From Candidatus Methylomirabilis limnetica (GTDB taxonomy: Bacteria > Methylomirabilota > Methylomirabilia > Methylomirabilales > Methylomirabilaceae), in the NCBI RefSeq assembly GCF_003044035.1, contig NZ_NVQC01000017.1, positions 1-32,000 on the forward strand: a stretch of 32,000 bases of DNA. Reading direction: 5' to 3'. The notes under the pieces were generated by a model. The model was not told where the DNA came from and did no database searches. It saw only the letters and a program-made list of their open reading frames with translations. This document shows positions 1,276 through 24,925 of this stretch, one piece after another. The translations under genes were made by a program, and so were the position numbers. The first letter of the stretch is position 1. Every line of letters starts with the position of its first letter.

Positions 1276-1510
1276 ATTAGACAAGAGATTCGACGAAGGT
1301 GAGGATATCTCCAAACACCTCGATCGGTCCAAGGCCAGAAGGCCTGAGCGGGAGCAGAAAAGGGTAAATGTAGATTTCCCTTTATGGATGATCAACCTGT
1401 TGGATAAAGAATCAAAACGGTTAGGTGTGCCCAGGCAATCCATTATCAAAGTTTGGGTGGCAGAACGTCTTGAAAAAGTAATGGTAACTACTCAGGCAGA
1501 TAGACTGTAG
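1262..1510 (+). CDS. brnA: BrnA-family (CopG/RHH-like) antitoxin
   Basis: MKASELDKRFDEGEDISKHLDRSKARRPEREQKRVNVDFPLWMINLLDKESKRLGVPRQSIIKVWVAERLEK. The ATG at 1262 overlaps the brnT stop (ATGAAGGCGAGTGA). The ORF-track start at 1235 lies inside brnT and is less likely. The last ~9 codons (VTTQADRL*) are read from repeat copy A. Confidence 0.8.
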   Translation: MKASELDKRFDEGEDISKHLDRSKARRPEREQKRVNVDFPLWMINLLDKESKRLGVPRQSIIKVWVAERLEKVMVTTQADRL

Positions 1511-1644
1511 GCTTTTAGACTGTAGGAACACGCCATGCGAGACCATACCAAGCTCAGAGTGTTTGAACTGCCCGGCGAAGTGCGCCTTGATTCGGTCTGT
1601 GCGCAACGGCTAACAGCCTACAGCCTAAACACCTAAGCAGTTCC
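1484..1644 (+). mobile_element. TIR element carrying a four-helix-bundle gene remnant, copy A (degenerate, inverted relative to B-F)
   Basis: It starts GTAACTACTCAGGCAGATAGACTGTAGG and ends CCTACAGCCTAAACACCTAAGCAGTTCC. The interior ATGCGAGACCATACCAAGCTCAGAGTGTTTGAACTG translates as MRDHTKLRVFEL, followed by ...VRLDSVCAQRLTAYSLNT*. No flanking duplication is recognisable. Confidence 0.75.
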
Positions 1645-1663
1645 CGCCCCTGTAACTTTTCCC

Positions 1664-3289
1664 TCAGGACAGGTCAGGTGCGGGGCGTAAGGCGACCGGG
1701 ACCTCGATGACTGTCAGCCGGTTTCGCGCTAATGCCTTCTCAACGACCTCACTGATCTGATCGAGCGAATCGACCCGCTCTGCTTCGGCTCCAAACGACC
1801 TTGCCAAGGCGATGAAGTCCGGGTTCGCGAGCGCTTCGTCGCCAAACAGGTGTCCGTCCTTCCGTTGACCATAGTCCACCATACCAAAGGCATTGTCGTT
1901 AAAGAGTAAGACGACAATGGCGGCTCGGTGTTTGACTGCGGTCGCCAGCTCCTGACAGGAGAAGAGAAATCCGCCGTCACCACACAGCGCCAGGACCTGA
2001 CGGTCAGGCTTGGCGAGCTTGGCACCGATGGCTGCCGGCAGCCCGAACCCGATCGTCCCGCTCCCCATCGCCCAGAGAAATGTTCCGGGTTCGTAGACCT
2101 CGAAGTATCTACGCGCCCAGTACGTCGCCATGGTCGAATCGTTGGTTACGATGGCGTCGCGTTTTATCACGTGCCTGATATCTTCGAGCAGCTTCACTTC
2201 GGCAGGGTATGTCGCTCTCACGCTTTCCATGGTCTGCTTTTTTGCCCTGATGACCTCTAGCCCTTCAAAGCCCTGCGGGCGTGACGACTGCTTTTCAAGC
2301 CTTCCGAGAATGTACTCTAAGGTTATACGAGCGTCTCCCACCAGCTCAACGATATGGCTGCCTTGAATGCCTGGATGGGTTTTGGCAAACTGCAGCTCGT
2401 CTATATCAACCCTGACCCAGTGCGGCGGAAGCCTCAATGACCATTTGCCGGTCGATCGGTTGCTGAACCGCGTGCCGACCACGATGGCGAGATCGGCCTT
2501 CTCGATGAGCGCCCGAACGGGTCCCTCCGTCCCCAGATTTCCAAGGGAGAGATCATGAGCCTCAGAGAGCACCCCTTTCCCTTTGATGCTGGTGAGCACC
2601 GGGGCGTTGAGCAACTCGGTCAGTCGTTTAATCGCCTGGCCCGCCCCTGAGGCGATCGCGCCACCCCCGGCATAGATGACAGGCCGCACCGCCCTGGCAA
2701 TCCGCTCGACCGCCTCTGCCAGCCTCTGCGCGTCGGGAAGGGTTGGCGTGTGCGTGACCGGCTGATACGAGAAGGGGGCGGCAAGCTCCGCATTCAGGAC
2801 ATCCACCGGAACCTCAAGGCCATAGGGTCGCGGCCGCCCATGTGCCATCCTGGAGAATATCGCCTGGAGGCTGTGAGGAATGTCTGAGGGTGTCGCCACG
2901 TCGTAGCACGCCTCTGTCACATTCGAAATCAGACCATGCTGGTTTTTGACCTCATGAAGGTCGCCCCAGCCTTTATGCAGATGCGCTTGCTCGATCTGAC
3001 TGGCGATAAGCAACACCGGTGAGGAACTGCAATAGGCTTCCTGCAACCCGACCATGGTGGCGGCAGTGCCGGCTCCTGTGCCTGCTATCACAACTCCAAC
3101 CTTGCCGGTGACCCGCGCATAGGCATCCGCCATGAACGCCGCAGATTGCTCATGACGCACCTCAATAAATCGAACGCCACGTCGCTTGGCGGCATCTGCG
3201 ACAGCGGTGATATGTAGGCCACGTATGCCGAATACGAACTCAACACCTTGAGCTTTGAGGCATTCGGCTATCGTCTCTGCGCCAGTCAT
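1664..3289 (-). CDS. thiamine-diphosphate-dependent enzyme (acetolactate-synthase / 2-keto-acid decarboxylase-like)
   Basis: 541-aa ORF. N-terminal TPP-pyrimidine domain (GVEFVFGIRG...HEQSAAFMADAYARVTGK) and the C-terminal GDG-x24-NDN TPP-binding motif (CGDGGFLFSCQELATAVKHRAAIVVLLFNDNAFG). GGAG-type RBS upstream of the ATG at 3289. Confidence 0.85.
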   Translation of the reverse strand: MTGAETIAECLKAQGVEFVFGIRGLHITAVADAAKRRGVRFIEVRHEQSAAFMADAYARVTGKVGVVIAGTGAGTAATMVGLQEAYCSSSPVLLIASQIEQAHLHKGWGDLHEVKNQHGLISNVTEACYDVATPSDIPHSLQAIFSRMAHGRPRPYGLEVPVDVLNAELAAPFSYQPVTHTPTLPDAQRLAEAVERIARAVRPVIYAGGGAIASGAGQAIKRLTELLNAPVLTSIKGKGVLSEAHDLSLGNLGTEGPVRALIEKADLAIVVGTRFSNRSTGKWSLRLPPHWVRVDIDELQFAKTHPGIQGSHIVELVGDARITLEYILGRLEKQSSRPQGFEGLEVIRAKKQTMESVRATYPAEVKLLEDIRHVIKRDAIVTNDSTMATYWARRYFEVYEPGTFLWAMGSGTIGFGLPAAIGAKLAKPDRQVLALCGDGGFLFSCQELATAVKHRAAIVVLLFNDNAFGMVDYGQRKDGHLFGDEALANPDFIALARSFGAEAERVDSLDQISEVVEKALARNRLTVIEVPVALRPAPDLS

Positions 3290-3316
3290 CCCGTATCTCC
3301 GTCACCCCCTCCCTCA

Positions 3317-3340
3317 CCCTCCCCCCTCGGAGGGGGAGGG
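3317..3340. repeat. GC-rich 9-bp hairpin (CCCTCCCCC/GGGGGAGGG) within a C/G-run element
   Basis: CCCTCCCCC-ctcgga-GGGGGAGGG lies between the aminotransferase stop and the TPP gene start. No U-run follows on the transcribed (minus) strand. Confidence 0.5.
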
Positions 3341-3465
3341 GACCAGTGGGGGGGGACTTTCGGGGCAATGATATCTCATTTCATGCGTTTGTATTAGGCG
3401 ATCATTCGAGAATGGTAGGGCCCGCCCTGTTGGGTCAGTGAGCGGCATCTGGAAGAGGTCGCCGC

Positions 3466-4653
3466 CTATTTGATCTGCGCGATGGCGGCATCCAGGATCA
3501 CAATGGCCTGATCCACATCCTGCGGGCTGATAATCAGAGGGGGCATGAACCGGATTGTCTGAGGTGGGATTGGGCTCAGCAGCAGGCCCCGTTCGCAGCA
3601 GGCCTTGGCCATCGCCAGGGCTACCGGCTTGGTAAACTCTATCGCCAGAAGAAGGCCCCGGCCCCGGACTTCCTTCACAATATCCCACTCCTCTTGCAAA
3701 CCCAGGAGTCGCTCCCGGAAGTAGCTTCCCACCCGCACCGCGCTCCCTGAAAGATCTTCCTTCACAATAAATCGAAAGACGGCTGTGGCCACCGCACAAC
3801 AGAGTGGATTCCCCCCGAAGGTAGAGCCGTGATCTCCCGGGCCAAAACAGGCGGCCCGATCGTTCGCCAGGAGCGCGGCAATGGGAATCCCGCCACCCAG
3901 CCCCTTGCCCACCGTCATAATGTCCGGCTTGATGCCGGAGACCTCGTGAGCCCACAGGGTCCCTGTTCGGCCGCAGCCCGTCTGGACCTCGTCCAAAATC
4001 AGCAGGAGGCCCCGTTCGTCGCAGAGATCTCGGACCTCCTTCAGATAGTTCTCAGTCGGAACGTTGACCCCACCCTCACCCTGGATCGGCTCCAGTAAGA
4101 TGGCGCAGGTTCGCTCTCCTACAGCCGCTCGCAGGGCCGCGACATCGTTGAACGGGACATGGCTGAACCCTTCAGGGAGCGGGGTAAAGGGCGCCTGGTA
4201 CTCCGGCTTGCCCGTCGCGGCCACCATCGCCAACGTTCGGCCATGGAAGCTCTTCAGCGCCGAAATGACCTCGTAGGCTCCATTCAGGTGCAGCTTGCCA
4301 TACTTCCGGGCTAGCTTGACCGCTCCCTCGTTGGCCTCAGCTCCACTGTTGCAAAAGAAGACTTTTGCCAGACCGCTCGCCGAGGTCAGTAGCTCTGCCA
4401 ACTCAATCTGTGGGGTTGTATAGACATCCAGGCTCGCCAGGATTAGGCGCTCCGACTGCTCTCGAAGAGCCTCTACGATCACAGGATGGCAGTGGCCCAG
4501 GCTGCAGGCGGCCCATCCGGCAATGAAGTCGAGATACTCCTTCCCGACCTCATCCCACACCCTCGCCCCTTCGCCACGGACGAGCGTCACCCCAAGACGC
4601 CGGTGGCCCGTGTCCATGAAATACCGTTTATCCAACTCTACCCAATGGTTCAT
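3466..4653 (-). CDS. class-III PLP aminotransferase (acetylornithine/ornithine aminotransferase-like)
   Basis: MNHWVELDKRYFMDTGHRRLGVTLVRGEGARVWD...CNSGAEANEGAVKLARKY...LDEVQTGCGRTGTLWA...MTVGKGLGGGIPIAA. The start at 4653 overlaps the upstream stop as ATGA, which I prefer over the ORF-track start at 4686. Confidence 0.85.
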   Translation of the reverse strand: MNHWVELDKRYFMDTGHRRLGVTLVRGEGARVWDEVGKEYLDFIAGWAACSLGHCHPVIVEALREQSERLILASLDVYTTPQIELAELLTSASGLAKVFFCNSGAEANEGAVKLARKYGKLHLNGAYEVISALKSFHGRTLAMVAATGKPEYQAPFTPLPEGFSHVPFNDVAALRAAVGERTCAILLEPIQGEGGVNVPTENYLKEVRDLCDERGLLLILDEVQTGCGRTGTLWAHEVSGIKPDIMTVGKGLGGGIPIAALLANDRAACFGPGDHGSTFGGNPLCCAVATAVFRFIVKEDLSGSAVRVGSYFRERLLGLQEEWDIVKEVRGRGLLLAIEFTKPVALAMAKACCERGLLLSPIPPQTIRFMPPLIISPQDVDQAIVILDAAIAQIK

Positions 4654-5456
4654 GATCCGTCCCGATCCAGGCTCAGGGCCAGGCACTTGGGCCCGCCTCC
4701 GGCCTTGAGAAACTCCGTGGTCTCGACCTCGTGAACGTGATACCCGGCCTCGGTGAGCGTCCGAGACAGGTGGGGACAGCCGGCGTTGACGACCACTGAC
4801 CGCCCGATGACCAGTGCATTGCAGGCCAACCGTTTAGCCTCCGCCTCCGTCACCGGGAGAAGCTCAGGAATAGCCTCTTTCAGGAGCCGCTGCGAGGCGG
4901 GACTGAACGCCTCCGGATAGTACGCTGCCCGGCCCGGTTGGAGCGGACACAAGCAGGTGTCCAGGTGATAGAACCATGGATCGGCGAGCTCCAGGGAATG
5001 GACGCGTAGCCCCAGGAGCTCCGCCAGAAGCTGATGGGCATGCAGCTCCGAACGAAAGCGGTGCCCGGCAAACAGGTCATTCCCGCAGAAGAGCGCATCC
5101 CCCTCCCCTTCAAAGAAGGCGGGTTCGGGAAGACAGGCCACCCGATAGTTCCGCTCTGCAAACCACTGTGTGCAATGAGGAACTTCCGCCTCGCGCTCAC
5201 GGTACCGGAACCGGCTACTCACAAAGAGGCCATTCACCAGGAGCCCGGCGTTGGCGGTAAAACAGAGGTCAGGCAACCCCGGAACCGGTGGCAGGAGCTC
5301 CACCTGAACCTGTAGCCCTTCGGTGAGGAGTCGATAGAGCGCCTCCCACTGCCTCACGGCGACTCCCCGGTCCGCCTGGTGCCCTCGATCCATCCAGGGA
5401 TTGATCTCGTAGTAGATCCCGTAATGGTCGGGACGACACATCAGTAGCCGGGTCAT
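4650..5456 (-). CDS. guanidino-group-modifying (amidinotransferase-fold) enzyme, ArgZ/AgrE N-domain-like candidate arginine dihydrolase
   Basis: 268 aa. The N-terminus LMCRPDHYGIYYEINPWMD, ...PDLCFTANAGL..., and the C-terminal GGGPKCLAL (catalytic Cys context) are typical of this superfamily. Confidence 0.65.
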   Translation of the reverse strand: MTRLLMCRPDHYGIYYEINPWMDRGHQADRGVAVRQWEALYRLLTEGLQVQVELLPPVPGLPDLCFTANAGLLVNGLFVSSRFRYREREAEVPHCTQWFAERNYRVACLPEPAFFEGEGDALFCGNDLFAGHRFRSELHAHQLLAELLGLRVHSLELADPWFYHLDTCLCPLQPGRAAYYPEAFSPASQRLLKEAIPELLPVTEAEAKRLACNALVIGRSVVVNAGCPHLSRTLTEAGYHVHEVETTEFLKAGGGPKCLALSLDRDGS

Positions 5457-5458
5457 GG

Positions 5459-6949
5459 CTACACGTCGGTACTAAGGCCTTGAGCCATTCTGATCTCGCG
5501 ACCGTGATTGACGGTCCACGCCACTTTGTGCGTCAGGAGATCCAACAAAGGCCAGGAAGCCGGAACACCCGTCCCGCTCTTCTTTATCCCGCCGAATGGC
5601 AGATGTACCTCGGCGCCGATGGTAGGCAGATTCCAGTACCCGACGCCAAACTCACACTCCTCCCGAAGACGACGGGCGATCCGGTAATCTTCGGTGATTA
5701 CGGAACAGGCCAGGCCATACTCCACATCGTTGTGGATGGCCACGGCCTCTTCCAGCGTTCGGAAGGGGATCAGAGCAACATGCGGCCCAAAGACCTCTTC
5801 GTGGAGCACCCTGGCATCTCTCCGATGAGCCATGCGATAGATGAAGGGGCTGAAGAAGTAGCCGTGCCGATAGGCCCCTTCCTCCAGGCGTCCGCCATCC
5901 AAGAGTACCTCGGCCCCCTCCTGCTTCGCCAGCAGGTTATAGAAACTGACCTTCTTCATCGCCGCCTCGTTGATGAGCGGGCCCATAAAGACCTGAGGAT
6001 CGAGCGGATCGCCGATGACGATCCGCCGCGCCATGGCGACAAAGGCCTTCGCGAACTCCTCCATCCGGCTCTCATGGATAATGAGGCGAGAAGCCGAGGT
6101 GCAGCGCTGCCCTGTCGTCTTGAAGGCGCTGAGTATCGCGGCCCGGACGGCCAGATCAAGATCGGCATCCTGGCAGACGATCATCGCATTCTTCCCGCCC
6201 ATCTCACAGGCGTACATCTTGCGATAGTCCTTGGCGCACGCCTCCTTGATCCGTGATCCCACCTCATACGAGCCGGTGAAGAGTACTACCTCGACGTCAG
6301 GGTGGGTCACCAATGGCCACCCTGCATCCCCTCCCATGCCCTGGACGAGATTCAGAACGCCTGGAGGAAGCTCGGCCTGCTCAAAGCACTCAACGATCTT
6401 CTCCCCCACCAACGGGGTGTTCCCGGACGGCTTGAAGACCACCGTGTTCCCTTCGAGCAGGGCCGGGGTGATCAGCCAGATGGGAATCGCAAAGGGGAAA
6501 TTCCAGGGGCTGATAACCGTGACCACCCCTTTCGGCTTGCGGAACATGTACGCATCCTTCTCGGCGAGCTCCGAGGGGAGGGCCTGACCGGAAGGAAGCC
6601 GCGCGTGGCCGAACATATACTGCGCCATGTGGATCCCCTCGACGACATCGGCCTTGGCCTCGTTGTACGCCTTGCCGGCCTCGGTTGCCACGAGGCGGGT
6701 GATCTCTTCAGTCTGGGCCTTAATCGCTTCAACGAATCGATCGAGATACTCCCCCCTTCTCACCCGTGACAGCGCGCGCCAGCCATGAAAAGCCGCCTTC
6801 GCGGCCGCGACCGCCTGCTCAGCATCCTCCCGATTCGACAAGGCTGCAACGCCAAGCACCTGATCGAATTTGGCGGGATTACGACTTTCAAACCTGGCTC
6901 CCCCGACCGCCTCCACCCATCTCCCACCAATATAATTCTTACCCTCCAT
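5459..6949 (-). CDS. NAD(P)-dependent aldehyde dehydrogenase
   Basis: 496 aa. Contains FTGSYEVG, the catalytic Glu context ACEMGGKNA and the catalytic Cys context GQRCTSASR. It ends 2 nt before the next gene's start, so the two are likely operonic. Confidence 0.9.
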   Translation of the reverse strand: MEGKNYIGGRWVEAVGGARFESRNPAKFDQVLGVAALSNREDAEQAVAAAKAAFHGWRALSRVRRGEYLDRFVEAIKAQTEEITRLVATEAGKAYNEAKADVVEGIHMAQYMFGHARLPSGQALPSELAEKDAYMFRKPKGVVTVISPWNFPFAIPIWLITPALLEGNTVVFKPSGNTPLVGEKIVECFEQAELPPGVLNLVQGMGGDAGWPLVTHPDVEVVLFTGSYEVGSRIKEACAKDYRKMYACEMGGKNAMIVCQDADLDLAVRAAILSAFKTTGQRCTSASRLIIHESRMEEFAKAFVAMARRIVIGDPLDPQVFMGPLINEAAMKKVSFYNLLAKQEGAEVLLDGGRLEEGAYRHGYFFSPFIYRMAHRRDARVLHEEVFGPHVALIPFRTLEEAVAIHNDVEYGLACSVITEDYRIARRLREECEFGVGYWNLPTIGAEVHLPFGGIKKSGTGVPASWPLLDLLTHKVAWTVNHGREIRMAQGLSTDV

Positions 6950-7168
6950 CGATCTCCCTCCTGAAAACGATAAGAGCAGGTCACCTCTCGGCTTCCTGCT
7001 CTTGGTATTGTATTAGGTTTCTCACCCCCGCAACTACTGACTAAGCCTTTACGCCGCCCACCACCCGATCCCGCCCCCGTCACAGTCAAGATCCGATGGG
7101 CACTGATAATCTAGCGCGAACGACAAGCGAGGGCAAGCTGTTTCGCTAAAAGTCAGCCCGATAGTTCC

Positions 7169-7197
7169 TTGACATATTGGAAGGGGCAGATTAGATT
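7169..7197 (+). promoter_or_regulatory. candidate sigma70 promoter of the plus-strand operon
   Basis: TTGACA (7169-7174), a 17-nt spacer, then TAGATT (7192-7197), about 95 nt upstream of the ATG at 7294. Confidence 0.35.
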
Positions 7198-7293
7198 ACA
7201 ACTAGCTGCAACATAACGGTTTATAATACCTTTCCTGATCCTTGGTAGGCTTCTCGATACCGTCGTTGATCTTCTCATGTCGGAGAGGGCGCC

Positions 7294-8103
7294 ATGCAGA
7301 GCAATGCCAGACAAAAGCGATTTGACGCCTTTTGGAAGAAGGTCGAACGGAAGGTTCATCGGCATCAAGCGATCAGGAACAACAGGTTCTGCGCCTGGTT
7401 CAATCGTGGGGAAGCCAACACCGCTCAAGTCATCCATTTCCTTGAACAGTTCGGGGTCTTTTCCAAGCATTTTGTCCCGATACAAGCCAAGCGAGTCGCC
7501 CGCGCGACAAACATTGAAAGCGAAAGGCTGGCACGCCATATCCTGGTCAACGAAAGCGGTGTGAGACTCGGCCCGGATAAGACCCCGGAGAATCAGACGT
7601 TCAGAACGGAGTGGGCCCATATCGAGTGGTTGCGCCAGACGTGCGCGCCACTCCCACTGGATCCGGAACGGTTAGGCAACTGGAGAACCGCTACCCCACC
7701 GACACGGCGCTTTCTGATTGAGCTTGAGAAGGCGTATGGAAGCCTCGATTGGCTGGTCGCCGGCGGCGCCAGTTACGGAATCGAGACGTGGGCGGCGTGG
7801 GGAATCGGGAAAGGTGAGGAGGCGGAATCCAAGAATTTCTGGAAGCAGCTCATCATTGGACTGAAGGGCTATAATGAAACACAGCGTCTGCTCCATGGCC
7901 TGGAGCCGATCCCTCTCGGCTTTTTCGAGCATCACTTCGAGCTTGAAACAGGGCATGGGGAGAATGTGTATGGCGAGCTCCTGAAAAGCTTTTCTCGCCC
8001 AAGGTTCGATGAAGATAAGTTTATAGAGGGCGGGCGAAGAGCGCTTGATGCCCTTTATATTTTCTGGGAGGGCCTTAACTCAGCCAGAAAGGCTCTTGCG
8101 TGA
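7294..8103 (+). CDS. haem-oxygenase-like fold, iron-containing redox enzyme family protein (PqqC/CADD/HDO-like)
   Basis: 269 aa and all-helical in character. Carboxylate/His pairs are spaced as in di-iron HO-like proteins: LVNESG, EWAHIEW, YGIETWAAW, FFEHHFELETGHGE. Confidence 0.55.
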   Translation: MQSNARQKRFDAFWKKVERKVHRHQAIRNNRFCAWFNRGEANTAQVIHFLEQFGVFSKHFVPIQAKRVARATNIESERLARHILVNESGVRLGPDKTPENQTFRTEWAHIEWLRQTCAPLPLDPERLGNWRTATPPTRRFLIELEKAYGSLDWLVAGGASYGIETWAAWGIGKGEEAESKNFWKQLIIGLKGYNETQRLLHGLEPIPLGFFEHHFELETGHGENVYGELLKSFSRPRFDEDKFIEGGRRALDALYIFWEGLNSARKALA

Positions 8104-8801
8104 CGGGCGCGAGGGGTTCGATGAGGTTCGCTCCCGGCGTGACGCTCGTATCGCCGACCCTCGATGCAGGGCTAGCGCGCAGGATCATTGAGGAGACGGA
8201 TCCATTCTCGACCCGACAGCATCTGGCGTACCCATCGGATCACGATGGGGCACAGGTGCATCTCGACGCCTACTTCTCCACCGAAGCGCTTGTTCAAATC
8301 CCGGAATTCGCTTCATGGCTCGTCGAAGACGTTGTGTTATGGATGACGGCGAAGGACCTCCGGCCTCAACTCATATTTGCTCCTGGCACTGACGCCGTCC
8401 GGGTCTTCGTCGAGAGACTTTCAAAAGCCGTCGGTGCCAAGCCGGTCTATCTCGAGACCAAGCCCAGCGGGCGATTCGGTAACACTATCGAGGGGAGTGT
8501 TCCCACCGATGCCTCGGTGTTGACGTTTAATCTGACCAGTTTGACCGGTGGCCGGTGCATCGGGTTTCGATTGCCTGAAGCGGCCACCCATGCCGGCGGT
8601 AACGTCATCGGCACGGCCGCGATTGCCCTCGGGACCTCACCGATTAACGAGGAGCTTCGAAGCAGATTTTCTGACAACCTCTACATCGCGTTCCACGTCG
8701 CGGTCACGAATCATAACCCGGATGCCTGCCCCGCGAATGCGCCCAGACTGCGTCCCTGGCAAGAGGCGAATGCGGAAATCATTGCTCGCCTCAGAAAGTG
8801 A
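8100..8801 (+). CDS. hypothetical protein (weak phosphoribosyltransferase-like topology)
   Basis: 233-aa ORF whose GTG start overlaps the upstream stop (GTGA); an alternative ATG lies at 8119. The segment LIFAPGTDAVRVF..LSKAVGAKPVY...SVLTFNLTSLTGG resembles a PRTase core but lacks the acidic DD pair. Confidence 0.5.
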   Translation: MTGARGSMRFAPGVTLVSPTLDAGLARRIIEETDPFSTRQHLAYPSDHDGAQVHLDAYFSTEALVQIPEFASWLVEDVVLWMTAKDLRPQLIFAPGTDAVRVFVERLSKAVGAKPVYLETKPSGRFGNTIEGSVPTDASVLTFNLTSLTGGRCIGFRLPEAATHAGGNVIGTAAIALGTSPINEELRSRFSDNLYIAFHVAVTNHNPDACPANAPRLRPWQEANAEIIARLRK

Positions 8802-8807
8802 AGCGCC

Positions 8808-11743: not shown

Positions 11744-13000
11744 ATGGCTGAGAATGTGCCAAAGATGGTGAATCTGACACGGACCGAGCGACGGGTCCGG
11801 TCTGATTACCAGACAGCTCTTACGGACTGGCACTCTACTGGCCGTCCTCCGAGGGGCCTTTCGAGCTACAAGCTCGAGTTCGGCACGGAACTCCTGATGG
11901 AGCACCCTCCAACCGCCATCGTCGAAAGCGCGACGATTCCCGCCGACCACCCCTTGTTCAAAGCACACGTCGAACGGCCAATAGGGGAAAGTCGCCCTCT
12001 CCAGAGGCAAGCCTTTCACGTAGCAGAGATGGCCACGTCCGGCTCCTTCGTCCCCATCCTCTCAAGTAACGATGTCACCATTTGGGTCTGCAATGGTGAT
12101 TTCGGGGAAGCCGGGAAGTGGCAACCGCCCTCTCGTCATGCGGACTGCGATGAACTCTATTTTGTCCATCGAGCCCACCATCCCCTGAGCCTCATTACCG
12201 ATTTCGGACTGCTCAAGGAAGTTCGGGAGGGCGATTTCGTTTTTCTGCCCCGAGGTACCACCTATTCGTTTCTCTTTACCGGAAGGGTTTCTATCCTCCT
12301 CTACGAAATCCCGAAACGGCTGTTTCGCCCCTACGACTACTGGATGGGGGATCAGCAGCCCTGGCCCTTTTCGCCGGCTGCTCCGATTCCGCCAGAACCG
12401 AAGCCTCTTGCTGGGCTCCATCCGCCGCTCAGCGGCGACGAGGCCACACAGGTTGTCGTCAAAAGACGGCTGGGCGGTTTCACGTTGCTCAAATATGCAG
12501 CGTCGGTCTTCGATGTCGTGGCGTGGGAGGGAGAGGTGTGGCCATTCATCTTGCGCCTCAACGATATAGTTGCGCTGTCCTCACCACACGTTCATCTCGA
12601 TCCGAAGAAGCTCACCGTCTTCGTAAGCGAGGATGAAGGAATGGCATTGCAGGTTTTCCTGCCCCGGTGGATCCACAGCCTGCCGTATCACCATCTCAAC
12701 TGGGTGGATGAGGTTCTCTTCAACCACAAGGGGTACAGCGCGCGGCCCGAGATCACCGACGGCTTCATGACCTTACATCCGGTCGGTCTGGCCCATGGCC
12801 CAGATTTGAAACTCCTGGCCAACATCGCCCGGAAAGAGATACCCAGCCCAAAGGACCTGCATTTCCTGGAAGAGATCGCCGTGATGGTGGAATCCAGGTC
12901 GCCGTTCGTTGTCCTGAAGGATGCGGAGAATGTGGAATTGAAGGGGTACGACCAATCCTGGTACCAGCAGTCGCTTGAGAGTAACTACTCAGGTGTTTAG
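11744..13000 (+). CDS. homogentisate 1,2-dioxygenase-family cupin protein
   Basis: 418 aa. Contains LPYHHLNWVDEVLFNHKGY....GFMTLHPVGLAHGPD, which matches the HGD signature YHRN..E....G.Y......SLHP.G.PHGP. The last 7 codons and the stop are supplied by repeat copy B. Confidence 0.7.
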   Translation: MAENVPKMVNLTRTERRVRSDYQTALTDWHSTGRPPRGLSSYKLEFGTELLMEHPPTAIVESATIPADHPLFKAHVERPIGESRPLQRQAFHVAEMATSGSFVPILSSNDVTIWVCNGDFGEAGKWQPPSRHADCDELYFVHRAHHPLSLITDFGLLKEVREGDFVFLPRGTTYSFLFTGRVSILLYEIPKRLFRPYDYWMGDQQPWPFSPAAPIPPEPKPLAGLHPPLSGDEATQVVVKRRLGGFTLLKYAASVFDVVAWEGEVWPFILRLNDIVALSSPHVHLDPKKLTVFVSEDEGMALQVFLPRWIHSLPYHHLNWVDEVLFNHKGYSARPEITDGFMTLHPVGLAHGPDLKLLANIARKEIPSPKDLHFLEEIAVMVESRSPFVVLKDAENVELKGYDQSWYQQSLESNYSGV

Positions 13001-13144
13001 GCTGAAGGCTGAAGGTTCTAAATTATCTCGCAAGGCACGAATCTAGCCATTCAAGACCTTTTCGGAGTTTTGTATGATCACGCATGACTTACCCCTAAAA
13101 GCCTTCAGCCTTCAGCCTTCAGCCTATCTACCTGAGTTAGTTAC
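12981..13144 (-). mobile_element. TIR element with four-helix-bundle gene remnant, copy B
   Basis: On the plus strand it starts GTAACTACTCAGGTGTTTAGGCTGAAGGCTGAAGG and ends CCTTCAGCCTTCAGCCTATCTACCTGAGTTAGTTAC. The minus-strand interior is ATGCGTGATCATACAAAACTC (MRDHTKL) joined to ...GLEWLDSCLAR*. Flanks are GCTTGAGA / AATTGAGA. Confidence 0.8.
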
Positions 13145-13160
13145 AATTGAGAAATGCTGA

Positions 13161-14212: not shown

Positions 14213-14224
14213 GGCATCAGGATG

Positions 14225-14448
14225 GTAACTGCTCAGGTGTTTAGGCTGAAGGCTATAAAATATTATCTCGCAAGGCACGAATCAAGCTATTCAAGACCTT
14301 CTCGGTTTCTACGACCTTTGGTTCAAGCAGAGCTTAATCCTCGTTGGGCAAGAAGCCCAAATGCTTTGACAGATTTAGTTGATAGCGCAGTTACCTCTGA
14401 TTACCCCTAAAAGCCTTCAGCCTTCAGCCTATCTACCTGAGTAGTTAC
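14225..14448 (-). mobile_element. TIR element with four-helix-bundle gene remnant, copy C
   Basis: It starts GTAACTGCTCAGGTGTTTAGGCTGAAGGCT and ends AGCCTTCAGCCTTCAGCCTATCTACCTGAGTAGTTAC. The interior keeps ..LLAQRGL.. and ..EGLE*LDSCLAR* remnants on the minus strand. A perfect 8-bp duplication TCAGGATG sits at 14217-14224 and 14449-14456. Confidence 0.85.
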
Positions 14449-14497
14449 TCAGGATGAACGTCGAAACGAAAGGATTGCGATTTACGATGGGAGGACG

Positions 14498-16111: not shown

Positions 16112-16131
16112 CAGCGGACCCGTCCTCTGTT

Positions 16132-16617: not shown

Positions 16618-16663
16618 TGTTCCTCGTTCGTGTTTAGGTAAGGTTTGCCCCTTTCACCCGGTT

Positions 16664-17554: not shown

Positions 17555-17595
17555 TATACTCCCTTTAGCTTAGCCAAGCCGCTACCTTGCACGGG

Positions 17596-17634
17596 AAAAA
17601 AACCGGCGCCGAGGGCATAACCCTTCGGCGCCGG
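17596..17634 (-). terminator. intrinsic terminator/attenuator between xoxF and xoxJ
   Basis: On the minus strand, CCGGCGCCGAAGGG-ttat-GCCCTCGGCGCCGG is followed by TTTTTTT. It starts 17 nt after the xoxF stop. Confidence 0.7.
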
Positions 17635-17650
17635 CATCAGGCATGCTCGC

Positions 17651-19483: not shown

Positions 19484-19682
19484 TGAATACCTCCCTCTTT
19501 ATGCGATCCTGTTGCTTCCCAGGAAATCATATCTCACTTCTCTCTAATGCCCCGATTGCCCCTACTTCACTTACGCCGCCTTTTCAGGAATTGCGATCCA
19601 CGCGTTCATCCAAGCAAAGATGCAGAGCGGCCGCTCTCCTCCTTTCTTTTGCCTAGCCTCTTCACGATTGGGTAAATCACTC

Positions 19683-19864
19683 GTAACTACTCAGGTGTTT
19701 AGGCTGTAGGCTGAAGGCTGTTAGTCGTTGCGCATGGACCGAATCAAGGCGCCCAGAACCTTTTCGGTCTCCATCATGTTCGCGTCGCATTCAGAAAACG
19801 CCTGGTTCATCCGTGCGCGTTCCTGCAGGCTAAAAGCCTACAGCCTATCTACCTAAGTAGTTAC
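19683..19864 (-). mobile_element. TIR element with four-helix-bundle gene remnant, copy D
   Basis: 182 bp: GTAACTACTCAGGTGTTTAGGCTGTAGG...CCTACAGCCTATCTACCTAAGTAGTTAC. The minus-strand interior reads MNQAFSECDANMMETEKVLGALIRSMRND*. A perfect 8-bp duplication AATCACTC sits at 19675-19682 and 19865-19872. Confidence 0.9.
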
Positions 19865-19894
19865 AATCACTCAACGCTCCGTAATGCGGACATC

Positions 19895-22054
19895 TTACCG
19901 GGTGAAAGAAAACACGCTAATAATACCACGTGACCCGTCCTGCAGATATGCGACGACACCCTTTTCTTTAACAGCCGATAGCACAATCAGGTTCTTCCTG
20001 CCGGTACCGTTCAGATCGGCCAAGGCAACGTCACGCACCTTCCCCTCAAGAGGGATCGTCTCCCACCCCCGCGCAAAGGTTCCTTCTTGACGGTCAAACG
20101 CCACAACCCGGCTAGGCAGGGACGACTCGACACGAAAAAGCCCAATCTTTTTCGGATTGGTAAAGGTCAGAAGCTCTGTCTTGGCGTTACCCCACAGGGG
20201 CGAGGTCTCGACAAGGATTCGCCGCGGCAGGATCTCCCGAATTGCGTGCTCTTCAGGAGTAATCAGGCCCGACTTGAGCCCGTCTCTAGCCAGGAGAGCC
20301 CGGTGCGTGGGGATGTGGGAAAAGGCAAGGTGATCGACCTCGCCCAGGTCATCTTTGCCTTCCCATGACGGCTTGCCCTCGCTCCCGTAGGCCTTGACCC
20401 GTTGCTCGCTAATAACAGCAACCTCTGATATCTGATCGCCGGTGGCATTGATCGGCGCAAATTCGTAGAGATTCTTCACCTGGACCGGAAGGATGAGTGG
20501 CTGCCCTTCGACATACCGCTCGCCATTCCAGGACAGTCGGATGATCGGCCCTTCAAAAGCAGTCAGTTCCCCCATCCGCTGACCGACCAGGATAGGCGTC
20601 TCAATACCAGGCCCCATGACCACGCGAAGGAAGTAGCCCAGCTTATCGGCAATTCGGACGAGCTTACTACCTTGAAGTTCCAGGACAAACGAGTGAAGCT
20701 CGTTCCGAGCACCGGACAGGGCCGTGATAACGACCTGGGCATGACTGCGGCCATTAATATTGCCGACATCAACATGCAAGTGGCGAATAGACCGGGGACT
20801 GCCAATCCTGGCAATCGGCGCCAGTCGTTGATTCTGCCACCGATAGACAATCACCTCAGAGGAGGTTATCCCAACGATCTCTGGCCGTTGATCCCCATCC
20901 AGATCTCCCGCTGCCAGTGCAAGAAGCGGATCGGGCAACTCGAATACGACAGACTCTTGCAAACCCTTATTATTATCGGAACGCGCCGGTTCGGCCTCAG
21001 CCACAGTCAGGAATGAAGGGGCCCCGGGCTTTCGCAACGCCTCTTCGGCAACCACACCCTTACGGGAAGAGGCTATCTCTGAAGAGGGACCTTTCATCTG
21101 CTCGGCAGTTCTCGAAGGCTCAGAACTTTGACGCTCCGCGTGGACGAAAGAGGGTCGTGACGCTGCTGAGGGGGCATGCCCTGAGCCAGGTCGGAGGGCC
21201 GGACCAGACGGTGGCGAGGGGGCGGCCACAACCATCGGTCCACGTTCCGCGATCTCGACGCTCGCAACAGTCAACGGCGCTCCGGTAACGACTGACATGA
21301 CCTGCAGATTCAAGAACAGGCCCTGATGACCAGGACTGAGTTTGCCCAAAACGAGGAGCTGAACGTGCGCCTTCTCCGCCAACAGTTTCAGGGTGGAGGG
21401 ATCGCCTAATGATTCCACCCGCGAGGAATGCTCCCCCGCCAGCGCGGCCCTGAGGAGCGGATCCTCGATTACGATAAAGCGGCCGGTCTTGGCTAGCGCA
21501 ATGGCCAGATCTTTCGTGACCGAATGGGCATTCGCTTCCTTGATCCCGCCGGTATTGATGAGTGGAAGGCCAACCAATAGACGGTCTGAACCTACCCGGA
21601 CCAAATCACTGGCCCTGATGGTAGACCCCTCCTCTCTGGAGACAATGGCCGCCTCCGAGAATTTCTCTTTCACATCAACGACTCTGAGGAGGCCCAGCCT
21701 TTTGTCCCGCCTTCCCAAGATCTCGCCAGTCACGGGGTGTTTGACTTCATCTCCTGCCCGATAGACCTGCAGTTCCATCCCCTGGTACACCTTATTGGCC
21801 CCCAGGTCGATCAGGACCCGGTCCCTCTCGACTCCTGTCACTGACCCTTGGACGACTGGAAAGGCTTCAGCGAGTTTAGCGGCAGCCTCCTCAGCAGCTT
21901 GACCAAAGGCCGGCTCCAGAGCGCGAGCTTGAGAGGCAATGATCGGGATAAAAAGGGTAACGACGAGACAAAGGCAAACCAGCCCGCGCCAGACACATGG
22001 AGGAGCAACTCTGACCGTTTTCGTATTCTTCACAAGGTGAGTGAAAACCTTCAT
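19895..22054 (-). CDS. secreted/anchored FG-GAP/VCBS-repeat protein with an N-terminal LpoB/CsgG-like domain and a Pro/Ser/Ala linker
   Basis: The start is taken at MKVFTHLV...LVCLCLVVTLFIPIIASQARA (22054). The ORF-track start at 22264 reads through repeat copy E. Contains GDLDGDQRPEIVG and ADLNGTGRKNLIV (FG-GAP Ca-loop-like) and a low-complexity linker about 100 aa long. Confidence 0.65.
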   Translation of the reverse strand: MKVFTHLVKNTKTVRVAPPCVWRGLVCLCLVVTLFIPIIASQARALEPAFGQAAEEAAAKLAEAFPVVQGSVTGVERDRVLIDLGANKVYQGMELQVYRAGDEVKHPVTGEILGRRDKRLGLLRVVDVKEKFSEAAIVSREEGSTIRASDLVRVGSDRLLVGLPLINTGGIKEANAHSVTKDLAIALAKTGRFIVIEDPLLRAALAGEHSSRVESLGDPSTLKLLAEKAHVQLLVLGKLSPGHQGLFLNLQVMSVVTGAPLTVASVEIAERGPMVVAAPSPPSGPALRPGSGHAPSAASRPSFVHAERQSSEPSRTAEQMKGPSSEIASSRKGVVAEEALRKPGAPSFLTVAEAEPARSDNNKGLQESVVFELPDPLLALAAGDLDGDQRPEIVGITSSEVIVYRWQNQRLAPIARIGSPRSIRHLHVDVGNINGRSHAQVVITALSGARNELHSFVLELQGSKLVRIADKLGYFLRVVMGPGIETPILVGQRMGELTAFEGPIIRLSWNGERYVEGQPLILPVQVKNLYEFAPINATGDQISEVAVISEQRVKAYGSEGKPSWEGKDDLGEVDHLAFSHIPTHRALLARDGLKSGLITPEEHAIREILPRRILVETSPLWGNAKTELLTFTNPKKIGLFRVESSLPSRVVAFDRQEGTFARGWETIPLEGKVRDVALADLNGTGRKNLIVLSAVKEKGVVAYLQDGSRGIISVFSFTR

Positions 22055-22156
22055 GCCATTGAACGCGATCAGCACCGGCTCGATTGTATCGATGAGAAAC
22101 CATGCACGCCTCTCACGCCCAGGAGAGCCAACCCATTCAGAAACGCTGTTTGATGC

Positions 22157-22338
22157 GTAACTACTTAGGTGTTTAGGCTGAAGGCTGAAGGCTGTTAGCC
22201 ATTGCGCATGGACCGAATCAAGGCGCCCAGAACCTTTTCGGTCTCCATCATGTTCGCGTCGCATTCTGAAAACGCCTGGCTCATCCGTGCGCGTTCCTAC
22301 AGTCTAAAAGCCTATAGTCTATCTACCTGAGTAGTTAC
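22157..22338 (-). mobile_element. TIR element with four-helix-bundle gene remnant, copy E
   Basis: 182 bp and about 94% identical to copy D. A perfect 8-bp duplication TTTGATGC sits at 22149-22156 and 22339-22346. Confidence 0.9.
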
Positions 22339-22426
22339 TTTGATGCAACGGCATTTTACACCTCATTCGCGCCAATCTGTCAAGTAATTTTTCTCTCGAA
22401 TATATGCCGTCTTGAGAGGTTGAGCG

Positions 22427-23662
22427 TTACGGGATCTTAGGCATCAGCAGGCGCGGCGGGCTGTCCGCTCGCTTTTCGCCGACCAGTTCCTTACCCACGA
22501 CCTTCCCTCCTGCAAAGCGATACCGGACATGAACCTTGCCATTGTAATCGGTGTCCTCTTCCTGAAGCACCTTTTCACCCGTCTCATTATAGGAGACCCA
22601 GACGTCCGGTCGGCCGTCCCCGTTGGTGTCATACTCTTCTTTGGCAAGGCGACCACTCCCAAAGAAGCGAACTAGGTCATACCGCCCCTCGTATTTGGTA
22701 TCAACCTCCTGCCGTTGAATCTCTTCCTCGCGAAAGAAGGTGACGACATCCATCTTCCCCTGCCGCCTGGTATCCTGCTGTCGCTTGACCGGCTTACCGC
22801 TCTCGTACCAGTCGATCAGATCGAGCCGGCCGGCTCCCTGCGTGTCCTCTTCTCGTCGGAAAAGGATGCCTACCTGGAAAAAGTAGGCGACGTTCGGCCG
22901 GCCTTGACCAAGAGTATCCTCCTCTTGCTTGACGATCTGTCCGTTCTCATAGTAGGCCCAGACGTCAGGTCGCCCGGAACCCTTTCGGTCGGCCTCGCGC
23001 CGGATCAGGCGCTCGTCCTTGTCGTAATACGACCAGCGGTCGATCCGCCCCGATCCTTTCGTATCCTCCTCGCGCCGCACGAGTTTTCCTTCCTGGTAAT
23101 AAGAAAAGAACGTTGGGCGAGCGACTCCCTTCTTATCCTCCTCATCCCTGATGAGCACGCCGGCAGCATCATAATACGACCAGAGGGTGATCTTTCCATC
23201 GCGTTTCACCGATTCCTCGGCCCGAACCGCCTTCCCCTTTTCGTAGAAGATGAATCGATCGACTCGCCCATCGGCATCCAGGTCCTGTTCTGCCTTCATC
23301 GGGATTCCCTGGTGATAACTAATCCGGATATCGAACTTCCCATCGCCGTTGTTATCTTTTTCCGTCCTCTCCACCTGACGATCTGTAGACAGGTGGTGCC
23401 ATGTGTCGGGTTTACCGTCTTTATTCGTGTCTACTGCCTGGAGGATCGGGTGTCCATCCCGGTAGGTGATCCAGGCATCGATACGCCCGGAGCCGGCGCT
23501 ATCAACCTCCTCCCGGATGACCTCCCCATTCTCGTCATAGAAATACTTACTCTTCGGCTCGGCTCCTCCTGCAGGAGGAGCGAAAAAGACGAGAAGGGAA
23601 AGGGCGAGGGGAAAGGACAAGGATATGGAGAACAATCTCGCAATGTGTAAGATAGTCGTCAC
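22427..23662 (-). CDS. secreted tandem-repeat protein, 14 x 24-25 aa units with D-x-[DN]-x-[DG]-G-[RK]-x-D loops
   Basis: GTG start. Signal peptide LFSISLSFPLALSLLVFFAPPAGGA. The repeat units include DTNKDGKPDTWHHL.., DNNGDGKFDIRISY.., DLDADGRVDRFIFY.., DTKGSGRIDRWSYY.. and DTNGDGRPDVWVSY... The gene starts 13 nt after the tonB stop. Confidence 0.75.
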   Translation of the reverse strand: MTTILHIARLFSISLSFPLALSLLVFFAPPAGGAEPKSKYFYDENGEVIREEVDSAGSGRIDAWITYRDGHPILQAVDTNKDGKPDTWHHLSTDRQVERTEKDNNGDGKFDIRISYHQGIPMKAEQDLDADGRVDRFIFYEKGKAVRAEESVKRDGKITLWSYYDAAGVLIRDEEDKKGVARPTFFSYYQEGKLVRREEDTKGSGRIDRWSYYDKDERLIRREADRKGSGRPDVWAYYENGQIVKQEEDTLGQGRPNVAYFFQVGILFRREEDTQGAGRLDLIDWYESGKPVKRQQDTRRQGKMDVVTFFREEEIQRQEVDTKYEGRYDLVRFFGSGRLAKEEYDTNGDGRPDVWVSYNETGEKVLQEEDTDYNGKVHVRYRFAGGKVVGKELVGEKRADSPPRLLMPKIP

Positions 23663-23675
23663 GCCCTATCCCATA

Positions 23676-24698
23676 TCAGTTAAGCGCGAACTTTACCGGA
23701 AGCAGCACCCAGCTTTCCACCGGCTTCCCACCCTTTTTGGCAGGAAGAAACGCCCACCCCTTAACCGAATCTACCGCCTCCCGATCAAGGATCTCATAGC
23801 CCGAGGATCGATCAATAGTAAGTTGCCCCACGCGACCATCCGCCCGAACCAAGACACGCAGGTAGACCGTTCCTTCGTAACCTTTTTCCCGTGCCAAAGG
23901 AGGGTACCTGGGAAGCGGATTGATCCCGTAGTTCGGGGCCGCGTATCCACCTCCAGCAGCTCCACTACCTGTCCGGCCAGATCCTCCGCCTGTACCGCCG
24001 CCCTGGGGAGAACCAACAGTCACTGTCGGTGTCAGTGGCGCGGTCAACGCTGCGTCGAGCCGGCCCGCTCCACCCCGGCTTGCTGAGCCGGAGCCGCCTA
24101 CGCCATCCCCGTCAGGACCGAGCAGAACCGGCCCCGGCGACAAGCTAACTGCTGTAGAGGATCCCGGTGTGCCAACGTCCACTGCGCGTGACCCACTCCC
24201 CGACATACCAACGGCCTTTGGCCCGCCGATCCGCTCATCCAACGTCGTAGGCTCCACCACCTCAGCCGCCCGAGCAGGTGAAGACGCCGCAAGAACAGGA
24301 GACGGAGGCGAAACGCGAGGTTGAGCCATCGCTTTCGAGTTGACAGGAGGAACCGCCTTCCCTGGGGCGGCTGCTTGCCTCGTGCGAGTGCGGTCAGGGT
24401 GTCCCGATGGAGCGGATGGCTCGGAATTCTCACTTCCAATGAGGGTTACGACAAGGGGCCGCGGAGCTGATGGAGCCGTGAGAAGCCCAAAACTGATGAT
24501 AACCCAAGCCAGAATCAGGTGGAAACCGGTGGAACTCAGGAGAAATCGGCCCAACGAAAGCGGTCTGGCCTGCGATCCAACCAGAAACGTCATGACAGGA
24601 TGGATCGCATCGGGGGCCCGGTCAACCTCAGTACGGCCTCCTTGACGTCCAAGCGCGAAACTATCCTTTGGAGACATAAAACAATTATAGCGGATCAT
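23676..24698 (-). CDS. tonB: TonB-family energy transducer
   Basis: C-terminal TonB domain: YPPLAREKGYEGTVYLRVLVRADGRVGQLTIDRSSGYEILDREAVDSVKGWAFLPAKKGGKPV. There is one TM segment (FHLILAWVIISFGLL) and a Gly/Pro/Ser/Ala-rich spacer. The start is uncertain: ATGs lie at 24698, 24677 and 24593, none with a good RBS. The ORF-track start at 24851 lies inside repeat copy F. Confidence 0.8.
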   Translation of the reverse strand: MIRYNCFMSPKDSFALGRQGGRTEVDRAPDAIHPVMTFLVGSQARPLSLGRFLLSSTGFHLILAWVIISFGLLTAPSAPRPLVVTLIGSENSEPSAPSGHPDRTRTRQAAAPGKAVPPVNSKAMAQPRVSPPSPVLAASSPARAAEVVEPTTLDERIGGPKAVGMSGSGSRAVDVGTPGSSTAVSLSPGPVLLGPDGDGVGGSGSASRGGAGRLDAALTAPLTPTVTVGSPQGGGTGGGSGRTGSGAAGGGYAAPNYGINPLPRYPPLAREKGYEGTVYLRVLVRADGRVGQLTIDRSSGYEILDREAVDSVKGWAFLPAKKGGKPVESWVLLPVKFALN

Positions 24699-24743
24699 TA
24701 CGAAGCGAGCGAAGAGTTTTTTCTTACATACGGTCCTGTGATC

Positions 24744-24925
24744 GTAACTCCTCAGGTGTTTAGGCTGTAGACTGAAGGCTGTTAGTCGTTGCGCATGGAC
24801 CGAATCAAGGTGCCCAGAACCTTTTCGGTCTCCATCGTTTTCGCGTCGCATTCAGAAAACGCCTGGCTCATCTGTGCGCGTTCCTACAGTCTAAAAACCT
24901 ACAGTCTATCTACCTGAGTTGTTAC
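24744..24925 (-). mobile_element. TIR element with four-helix-bundle gene remnant, copy F
   Basis: 182 bp. The flanks CTGTGATC (24736-24743) and CTGTAATC (24926-24933) match at 7 of 8 positions. It begins 8 nt after the receptor stop. Confidence 0.9.

Follow-up and report, generated by a model that had tools for sequence, protein, structure and literature searches.

Six miniature insertions in Candidatus Methylomirabilis limnetica related to cassettes that carry a four-helix-bundle gene between ISBst12-type ends

Four-helix-bundle proteins of the PF05635/TIGR02436 type are very common, and we know of no function for them outside diversity-generating retroelements. Proteins of this type are also encoded by open reading frames (ORFs) in intervening sequences (IVSs) of rRNA genes, and the origin of the ORF-containing IVSs, a question since 1990 to 1993, is still called unclear (PMC4990558). 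The IVS of Coxiella burnetii is 445 nt long (probe sequence in Table S3 of PMC4990558), its stem is cut by RNase III, and one strain carries a 176-bp internal deletion (PMC4990558). Mobile insertion cassettes (MICs) have a passenger gene between insertion sequence (IS)-type ends, lack a transposase of their own, and are presumed to be mobilized in trans by a cognate IS (PMC3129680). The ISBst12 group of the IS66 family includes ISDge4 of Deinococcus, for which GTGACTACTCAGCA and GTAACTGCTCAGCA are reported as termini, along with a direct repeat of 8 bp (PMC12898284). Here we describe six short repeats, copies A to F, in the first 32,000 nt of contig NZ_NVQC01000017.1 of Candidatus Methylomirabilis limnetica (the window, to whose full length all positions refer). 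We are confident, short of certainty, that they belong to a family of cassettes and miniature inverted-repeat transposable elements, or MITEs, that have ISBst12-type ends. In what follows, L-numbers denote fetched loci and P-numbers environmental ISBst12-type transposases.

Six copies and their empty sites

All six copies were present where the initial annotation had placed them (Table 1). Their ends read GTAACTACTCAGG and CCTGAGTAGTTAC. For the invariant 14-mer AGGTGTTTAGGCTG, six occurrences were counted over the window, compared with 0.00 expected from 100 shuffles. A relaxed scan of the window for such ends returned exactly 12, all of them from copies A to F, and no solo ends. The copies can be aligned over their whole length, measure 161 to 224 bp, and hold no intact ORF. 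Their terminal inverted repeats (TIRs) comprise 13 to 14 nt with further pairing inward: the paired ends form a stem of 14 bp, then a 3-by-3 internal loop, and then a heptamer-based stem of at least 13 bp, much as the two paired blocks had been described from the letters. Single strands of the copies fold into one long hairpin, with −78.6 kcal/mol (z = −7.4) for copy D. Two ends have diverged, as the right end of copy B contains one additional T (GAGTTAGTTAC) and the "left" end of copy A is decayed (GGAACTGCTTAGG). Judged by sequence, A, D, E, and F form one subfamily and B and C another, each with a full-length parent of its own. Copies D, E, and F share a length of exactly 182 bp, as claimed, and the identity of about 94% estimated by hand for D and E was measured at 94.0%, with F similarly close (92.9% to D and 92.3% to E). 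The recent spread deduced from this likeness holds in a relative sense only, given copies that are 6 to 8% apart. The closest copies outside the window are in Methylomirabilis metagenome-assembled genomes (MAGs).

Table 1. Copies A to F and their flanking 8-mers in the window (TSD, target site duplication)
Feature	Position	Strand	Description
Copy A	1484..1644	+ (= gene-sense strand)	161 bp, subfamily 1; 5' arm, codons 1-16 (MRDHTKLRVFEL...), about 10 final codons, 3' arm; TSD not recognizable; outer end 1632-1644 degraded
Copy B	12981..13144	-	164 bp, subfamily 2; first 7 codons (MRDHTKL) and about 17 final codons kept
B left flanking 8-mer	12973..12980		GCTTGAGA; relatives have a single ...GCTTGAGATATGC
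B right flanking 8-mer	13145..13152		AATTGAGA, decayed duplicate, 6/8 match to left
Copy C	14225..14448	-	224 bp, subfamily 2; about 45 final codons (LRYQLNLSKHLGFLPNED, one in-frame stop, ALLEPKVVETEKVLNSLIRALRDNIL)
C left TSD	14217..14224		TCAGGATG; identical to 14449-14456; single-copy in L236, L239
C right TSD	14449..14456		TCAGGATG
Copy D	19683..19864	-	182 bp, subfamily 1; 5' arm, final 30 codons (...SECDANMMETEKVLGALIRSMRND, then stop), 3' arm
D left TSD	19675..19682		AATCACTC; identical to 19865-19872
D right TSD	19865..19872		AATCACTC
Copy E	22157..22338	-	182 bp, subfamily 1
E left TSD	22149..22156		TTTGATGC; identical to 22339-22346
E right TSD	22339..22346		TTTGATGC
Copy F	24744..24925	-	182 bp, subfamily 1; flanks match 7/8
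F left flanking 8-mer	24736..24743		CTGTGATC
F right flanking 8-mer	24926..24933		CTGTAATC

The flanking 8-mers were likewise as claimed, perfect around C, D, and E, imperfect around F and B, and unrecognizable around A. Syntenic contigs of relatives, obtained through homologs of the window's XoxF and phosphatidylethanolamine-binding protein (PEBP), provided unoccupied sites for four of the copies. Copies D and E are missing from L217 and L218 (XoxF 95% and 89% identical, respectively), where a single GAGCGATT (reverse complement, one substitution) stands at the D site and a single GCATCAAA at the E site. The empty sites of B and C were found among three further contigs with PEBP proteins 90 to 92% identical, that of B as a single TTGAGA in L236, L238, and L239 and that of C as a single TCAGGATG in L236 and L239. 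Moreover, the ortholog of the 418-amino-acid (aa) ORF into which copy B is inserted is 414 aa long in relatives without B and terminates in SLEIC before its stop codon, which is the prediction obtained on removing B. The 8-mer is thus single-copy in relatives that lack B, C, D, and E, as the duplications proposed in the initial annotation would have it. No relative covering the F site was recovered, and no orthologous regions were found among the loci derived from the end pattern.

That pattern, built on the left end, was scanned against species-representative genomes and gave at least 120 loci in 50 assemblies. The matches listed include Desulfobacterota, Methylomirabilota, Nitrospirota, Nitrospinota, and Planctomycetota (Brocadiaceae), as well as Ignavibacteriota, Lentisphaerae, Aminicenantes, and Desantisbacteria. 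Flanks were scored family-wide on 103 paired elements from about 50 assemblies. Adjacent 8-mers matched at six or more of the eight positions in 61 of 100 cases, against 0 of 100 in a control placed 12 nt further out, and perfect flanking repeats numbered 33 at length 8 and at most 1 at every other length from 4 to 11. The sizes of the paired elements are bimodal (55 to 340 bp and 430 to 495 bp). Around the target 8-mer, A/T is weakly and symmetrically preferred. Insertions lay inside long open frames in 13 of 50 cases, whereas 86% of positions drawn at random from these loci did.

Intergenic, strongly folding hairpins at which short-read assemblies break could also be repetitive extragenic palindromic (REP) sequences, REPINs (REP doublets forming hairpins), or terminators, spread by recombination or by an enzyme of the REP-associated tyrosine transposase (RAYT) type, with the 8-mer matches due to chance. 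However, the single 8-mers at four empty sites are precise, the 33 perfect 8-bp repeats have no counterpart in the offset control, and no T-run follows the hairpins. There is also no Rfam family match: when the window was searched with Rfam at gathering thresholds, nothing was returned, and a scan for tRNAs was likewise empty. We give the REP or terminator reading next to no weight, and the empty-site alignments refute it. The repeats in the window are MITEs by the following observations: they are shorter than 500 bp and noncoding, have TIRs and a TSD of fixed length, and are dispersed deletion derivatives.

L092 holds two 330-bp copies, at 4074-4403 and 7538-7867, that point the same way with about 3.5 kb between them and have one identical outer flank; segmental duplication may account for them, or they may be parts of a composite arrangement. 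One insertion site (flank CTTCGGCA) is common to two species, Methylomirabilis sp. bin48 (L017) and M. oxygeniifera (L050), and the elements found there differ in length (166 and 182 bp), which reflects either deletion in place after insertion or one site used twice.

Full-length cassettes and ISBst12-type ends

The parents of the short copies are 430 to 470 bp long and carry an intact gene. Metagenome contigs scanned with an alignment of the cargo protein yielded 80 full-length genes, and the genome scan contained full-length copies at L079 and at L121, the latter with a mutated start codon. The parent of subfamily 1 is L199 (446 bp), which encodes MRDHTKLRAFELADE...SECDAKMMETEKVLGALIRSMRND before its stop codon where copy D reads SECDANMMETEKVLGALIRSMRND. 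Copy A corresponds to L199 positions 1-99 (93.9%) plus 377-436 (83%), and D, E, and F each correspond to positions 1-50 (90%, 96%, and 94%, respectively) plus 316-446 (94.7%, 92.4%, and 92.4%). For subfamily 2, copy C equals positions 1-30 plus 261-430 of L155 (87.3%). With these junctions mapped, the interiors are indeed different deletion derivatives of one gene. The initial annotation had staked its reading on the existence somewhere of an intact four-helix-bundle ORF between such ends, and four loci (L125, L130, L136, and L187) contain one: they end in these termini, are flanked by perfect 8-bp duplications, and measure 444 to 457 bp, and their only ORF is a PF05635 gene of 117 to 118 aa. 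The flanking 8-mers of four more full-length copies match at 7/8 positions. In the cassette, 44 to 51 nt lie ahead of the start codon.

The full-length cargo scored 107 to 110 bits against PF05635 (cutoff, 33.8) and 110 bits against TIGR02436 (cutoff, 24), and its closest solved structure is 2GSC (E = 2.5e-24). No remnant in the window reached a cutoff in hidden Markov model (HMM) scans; remnant C was marginal with TIGR02436 (E = 0.0022; 18.2 bits, below cutoff), and A, D, E, and F gave no match. The remnants are therefore assigned to the family via their 87 to 95% DNA identity to the full-length parents, and the IVS-protein assignment made by eye stands on HMM grounds for the full-length gene and not for the short remnants. 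The C terminus GLE.LDSCLAR that had been read in B and C proved to be in the wrong frame; in the gene frame B and C end ...VVETEKVLNSLIRALRDN / ...ETEKVLNSLIRALRDN, like the intact relative L077. Across 569 pairs of 67 intact ORFs, the median ratio of nonsynonymous to synonymous substitution rates (dN/dS) was 0.125, which indicates that the cargo protein is functional and under purifying selection rather than a relic. A PADLOC search with the cargo found no defense-system match. In the arms, the conserved 3-nt mismatch, T(A/G)GATAG versus TGTTTAG, is not universal, as L130 and L138 have the same variant in both arms and perfect pairing; the two arm variants may reflect left-end and right-end differences of an ancestral IS.

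Whose ends these are was addressed by reading the ends of five single-ORF IS66-type ISs, one on the Geobacillus plasmid pHTA426 and four environmental, next to the published 14-nt termini of ISDge4. The pHTA426 IS has ends GTATCTATTCAGCCC and GTAACTATTCAGCCC and the TSD GACGAGTT, the P0027 IS has the end GTAACTATTCAGCCCC and the TSD ATAAAAAG, and the P0092 IS has ends GTATCTGCTCAGGCATG and GTTACTACTCAGGCC and the TSD CTTTTGTT. Ends of this type were also read for the P0113 and P0067 ISs, whose flanking 8-mers are unmatched in short metagenome contigs, such that these two document the ends and not the duplication. All five ISs are 1.57 to 1.64 kb long, begin GT(A/T)ACT(A/G)(C/T)TCAG(G/C), and, together with ISDge4, have GT(A/T)ACTNNTCAG in common with the element. 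The element end GTAACT(A/G)CTCAGG lies within the variation of the ISs, as seen in the P0092 right end, GTTACTACTCAGGCC. Their transposases combine the domains DDE_Tnp_IS66, zf-IS66, and DUF6444 (three tested directly; P0027 and P0067 from precomputed Pfam matches). The IS66 resemblance pointed out in the initial annotation held up, for the ISBst12 group, on the outer 12 to 13 nt and the 8-bp duplication. These ISs encode a transposase of 485 to 505 aa whose stop codon lies in the right end, whereas the element encodes none, and its heptamer arrays beyond the first 13 nt were unseen in the five ISs read. Without a DDE_Tnp_IS66 transposase of its own, the element is a derivative or parasite of the ISBst12 group and not a member IS.

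We conclude that the six copies are nonautonomous MITEs that arose by internal deletion from a 430- to 470-bp mobile insertion cassette. From the outside inward, the cassette consists of a 13-nt TIR, GTAACT(A/G)CTCAGG, a short mismatch, and an arm of tandem heptamers (consensus CTGAAGG or CTGTAGG), followed by a PF05635/TIGR02436 gene of 116 to 119 codons, with its start codon 3' of the 5' arm and its stop codon up against the 3' arm. A complementary heptamer arm and the inverted terminus complete it, the whole forming one predicted hairpin. A single-ORF DDE transposase of the ISBst12 group most likely mobilizes the cassette in trans; it would recognize the outer 12 to 13 nt, and its staggered cut would produce the 8-bp duplication. 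After insertion, the outer termini would decay while the gene and the inner hairpin are retained. Full-length copies would be expressed via read-through from host operons, and RNase III would cut the long stem out of the transcript, by analogy with rRNA IVSs.

Several observations are in keeping with terminus decay and read-through expression. Among the 80 gene-bearing loci, the match to the outer 13 nt grades from 13/13 down to background with the gene and the inner heptamer stem intact, and because this gradation is continuous we read the loss of termini as decay. By a crude ORF heuristic, full-length copies are co-oriented with neighboring ORFs (95:27; P = 5e-10), and by the same heuristic the deletion derivatives have no bias (75:66; P = 0.5). 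Terminus decay, co-orientation, and the 44- to 51-nt leader together suggest that retained copies are expressed by read-through.

Weighed against the proposal are the following points. Neither the window nor some 1.2 Mb of element-bearing loci yielded an ISBst12-type transposase gene, and a tblastn search of the loci with six ISBst12-type transposases gave no match. A long IS with these ends, for which the initial annotation had looked to the genome, was absent from about 1.17 Mb of fetched loci, and no IS was found whose end identity runs beyond 13 nt into the heptamer arms. The divergence of the window copies (6 to 8%) gives no sign of present activity. A vehicle for an element present in so many phyla did not turn up: an end-pattern search of viral contigs gave 0 matches, and a DNA search of a plasmid collection gave none. 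Most full-length four-helix-bundle genes in the metagenome sample are without intact GTAAC termini, and an older hairpin-plus-gene module that was secondarily captured by IS ends is equally compatible with the data.

Passenger genes between IS-type ends have a precedent. The initial annotation had regarded a nontransposase gene between such ends as an undescribed arrangement, which was overstated, since this is the definition of a mobile insertion cassette (PMC3129680). MICs, such as MIC231 of Bacillus cereus, and MITEs share with the element IS-type TIRs, a target duplication, and the lack of a transposase, with a passenger gene in the former and nothing in the latter. In contrast to these, the element has in every copy with a passenger the same small PF05635 gene, set between heptamer-array arms that make the unit a single long hairpin. 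Its family extends over many phyla, its cargo is selected, and those copies that have the gene share the orientation of host genes. Apparently new are the nature of the cargo, the wide range of phyla, and the bracketing of the gene by inverted heptamer arrays. One clade of PF05635 genes, with its cargo under selection, would gain a defined mobility mechanism in the ISBst12-type ends and the 8-bp duplication.

Other small elements have the terminus GTAACT(A/G)CTCAG as well (L026 at 3670-4652, L199 at about 3490, L087 at 5793-5883 and 7173, L040 at 3323, and L103). They have other subterminal repeats (e.g., GGTTCAA/GGTTCAC heptamers or CCACAAAGACACGAAGG) and no four-helix-bundle remnant; a single transposase group appears to serve several MITE families. 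In L042 (about 2665-3600), a 182-bp-type copy is truncated in its right arm, and an IS110-family (DEDD) transposase gene abuts the truncation. An IS110-family gene also abuts the truncated right end of the P0067 ISBst12-type IS, downstream of the transposase gene, in five of six places (L211 and L213 to L216). The breaks are not at one point but 19 nt and 8 nt from the tip. An IS110-type element may preferentially target ends of this kind.

Heptamer arms, rRNA intervening sequences, and plasmid genes

The Coxiella IVS resembles the cassette in much of its build. In the sequence published in PMC4990558, complementary arms consist of GACAGAT heptamers in strain-variable number, the start codon lies directly 3' of the 5' arm, and the stop codon lies shortly 5' of the 3' arm. 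The S23p ORF of Coxiella is 31% identical to the cargo (E = 1e-18). Both kinds of unit are thus of similar size (428 to 445 nt for ORF-containing 23S rRNA IVSs such as those of Coxiella and Leptospira, 430 to 470 bp for the element), form a long stem from terminal complementary arms, and place variable tandem heptamers between the stem base and the start of a PF05635-type ORF and their complement after its stop; strain variants with internal ORF deletions occur, and the fold is the same. They differ in that the Coxiella IVS sits in helix 45 of the 23S rRNA and replaces the helix tip, has no recognizable GTAACT termini or 8-bp duplication in the published sequence, and uses the heptamer GACAGAT instead of the element's CTGAAGG. 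A comparison of the Coxiella IVS ends with ISBst12 ends found only TCAG in common, which is not significant, and this match was rejected. In a motif search, none of about 200 fetched loci placed the element in an rRNA gene, and in the window every copy is either flanked by protein-coding genes or placed at the end of one. The suggestion that elements of this kind gave rise to rRNA IVSs is strengthened by the Coxiella comparison and falls short of demonstration.

Heptamer arrays also bracket genes annotated as four helix bundle protein on plasmids of Nostoc, Calothrix, and Stanieria. In Nostoc edaphicum plasmid pNe_5 (L231) such a gene lies between nrdB and nrdA, with the arrays TAGGGAG ×7 and TCCCTAC ×5 on its two sides. 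In Pseudanabaena plasmid pPg_01 (L229) the gene lies between cas6 and cas4, and the arrays (AAAAGCT ×17 and AAAAGCC ×9) are direct, not inverted. Together with L232, L233, L234, and L235, these are cyanobacterial and Gemmatirosa plasmid genes wedged into operon spacers and accompanied by arrays like the short tandemly repeated repetitive (STRR) sequences. Cyanobacterial four-helix-bundle genes are bracketed by STRR-like heptamers much as the cargo is by its arms, with the differences that the heptamers are others and that no ISBst12-type termini were seen. We infer that STRR arrays are related to the elements described here. A heptamer-array hairpin is the signature common to the element, the Coxiella IVS, and the cyanobacterial plasmid genes.

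Since such arrays bracket PF05635 genes that have no GTAAC termini, as in the Coxiella IVS and the cyanobacterial plasmids, the four-helix-bundle protein itself might be the mobility factor, or an essential cofactor, binding the arrays both of the element that encodes it and, in trans, of deletion derivatives, with the likeness to ISBst12 being secondary. In the metagenome set, 7 is the most prominent repeat lag upstream of the gene in 56 of 71 flanks and downstream of it in 48 of 71. All MITE derivatives have kept the arrays, purifying selection acts on the cargo, and Ralph and McClelland, as cited in PMC4990558, proposed that the IVS ORF is a mobility component. However, a helical bundle of 118 aa has no known nuclease or transposase chemistry, and a DDE enzyme fully explains both the strict 8-bp duplication and the 12- to 13-nt identity to ISBst12. 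Furthermore, the MITE families at L026, L087, and L199 have the same termini with different subterminal repeats and no cargo remnant, which argues for the termini, not the arrays, as what defines mobility. We hold a mobilizing role of the protein to be unlikely and prefer a transposase of the ISBst12 group acting in trans.

An RNA intermediate, in which a hairpin transcript is excised like an IVS, reverse-transcribed, and integrated, was considered because the hairpin-plus-ORF build and size are those of the Coxiella IVS excised by RNase III and because the cargo is related to Avd, a partner of reverse transcriptases. The cargo matched the Avd model NF033474 (E = 2.8e-6; 27.6 bits, cutoff 80) and bAvd, PF22296 (E = 1e-4), both below their cutoffs, in line with a homologous four-helix-bundle fold family. 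In contrast to Avd, the cargo is solitary between transposon ends, its flanks are ordinary host genes, and no reverse transcriptase, template, or variable repeat lies nearby. Indeed, no reverse transcriptase was seen beside any copy. The duplication is fixed at 8 bp and the GTAAC...GTTAC boundaries are precise, whereas retro-insertions are usually variable; the ends equal those of DDE insertion sequences; and RNase III cuts within the Coxiella stem, so that a cDNA would lose the outer termini, which the copies keep. Spread through RNA is in our judgment very improbable, and DNA transposition by way of the ISBst12-type ends is preferred.

A broader idea is that the ORF-bearing rRNA IVSs, the heptamer-flanked four-helix-bundle genes, and the cassettes with ISBst12 ends form one ancient superfamily. 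We put this forward as a tentative possibility that we would not yet favor. If it were true, the heptamer arrays would be cognate binding sites or a processing substrate of the encoded protein, and RNase III would excise the unit from operon mRNA or rRNA, by which the insertion would be tolerated and the cargo mRNA released. The borrowed ISBst12 ends would then be a spreading vehicle and provide the first concrete mechanism for the entry of IVSs into rRNA genes. Among the open-access papers searched we found none that links PF05635 genes with MITEs, MICs, or STRR heptamers, nor a description of this cargo or of ISBst12-type ends, spread over phyla, selection on the cargo, or an association with heptamer arrays for four-helix-bundle genes.

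Neighboring genes in the window

Five of the six copies are intergenic, and copy B is at a gene end, three codons 5' of the stop of the 418-aa ORF (11744-13000). Copies D, E, and F occupy spacers of a co-directional cluster that encodes a TonB-dependent receptor, TonB, a 411-aa protein, an FG-GAP protein, and XoxF; D lies between the FG-GAP gene and xoxF, and F lies between the gene of the TonB-dependent receptor and that of TonB. The named homologs of the PEBP protein of the window are from Candidatus Methylomirabilis oxyfera (85%) and M. lanthanidiphila (78%). A metagenome contig in ENA that contains the XoxF-type dehydrogenase of the window stops inside copy B, which indicates that the element breaks assemblies. 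Short-read assemblies of Methylomirabilis, Nitrospira, and Desulfobacterota genomes are disrupted by it.

Gene calls are affected as well. Two minus-strand calls, of 789 aa (ORF 19895-22264) and 391 aa (23676-24851), start inside copies E and F, respectively, from which they take 22157-22264 and 24744-24851, including their first 35 or so residues (MRREHDGDRKGSGRLDSVHAQ...). The ortholog of the 789-aa call in L217, which is without E, has 736 aa. The N termini of both calls are probably annotation artifacts made by the insertions; the element causes false N-terminal extensions and altered C termini in gene calls.

The window also contains an inverted repeat at 28100-28266 that is unrelated to the element family, with 33-nt arms that are 88% complementary and 101 nt apart. 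It lies just upstream of a FitA-like/PIN toxin-antitoxin pair on the minus strand (about 27440-28084) and may be an operator or regulatory region.

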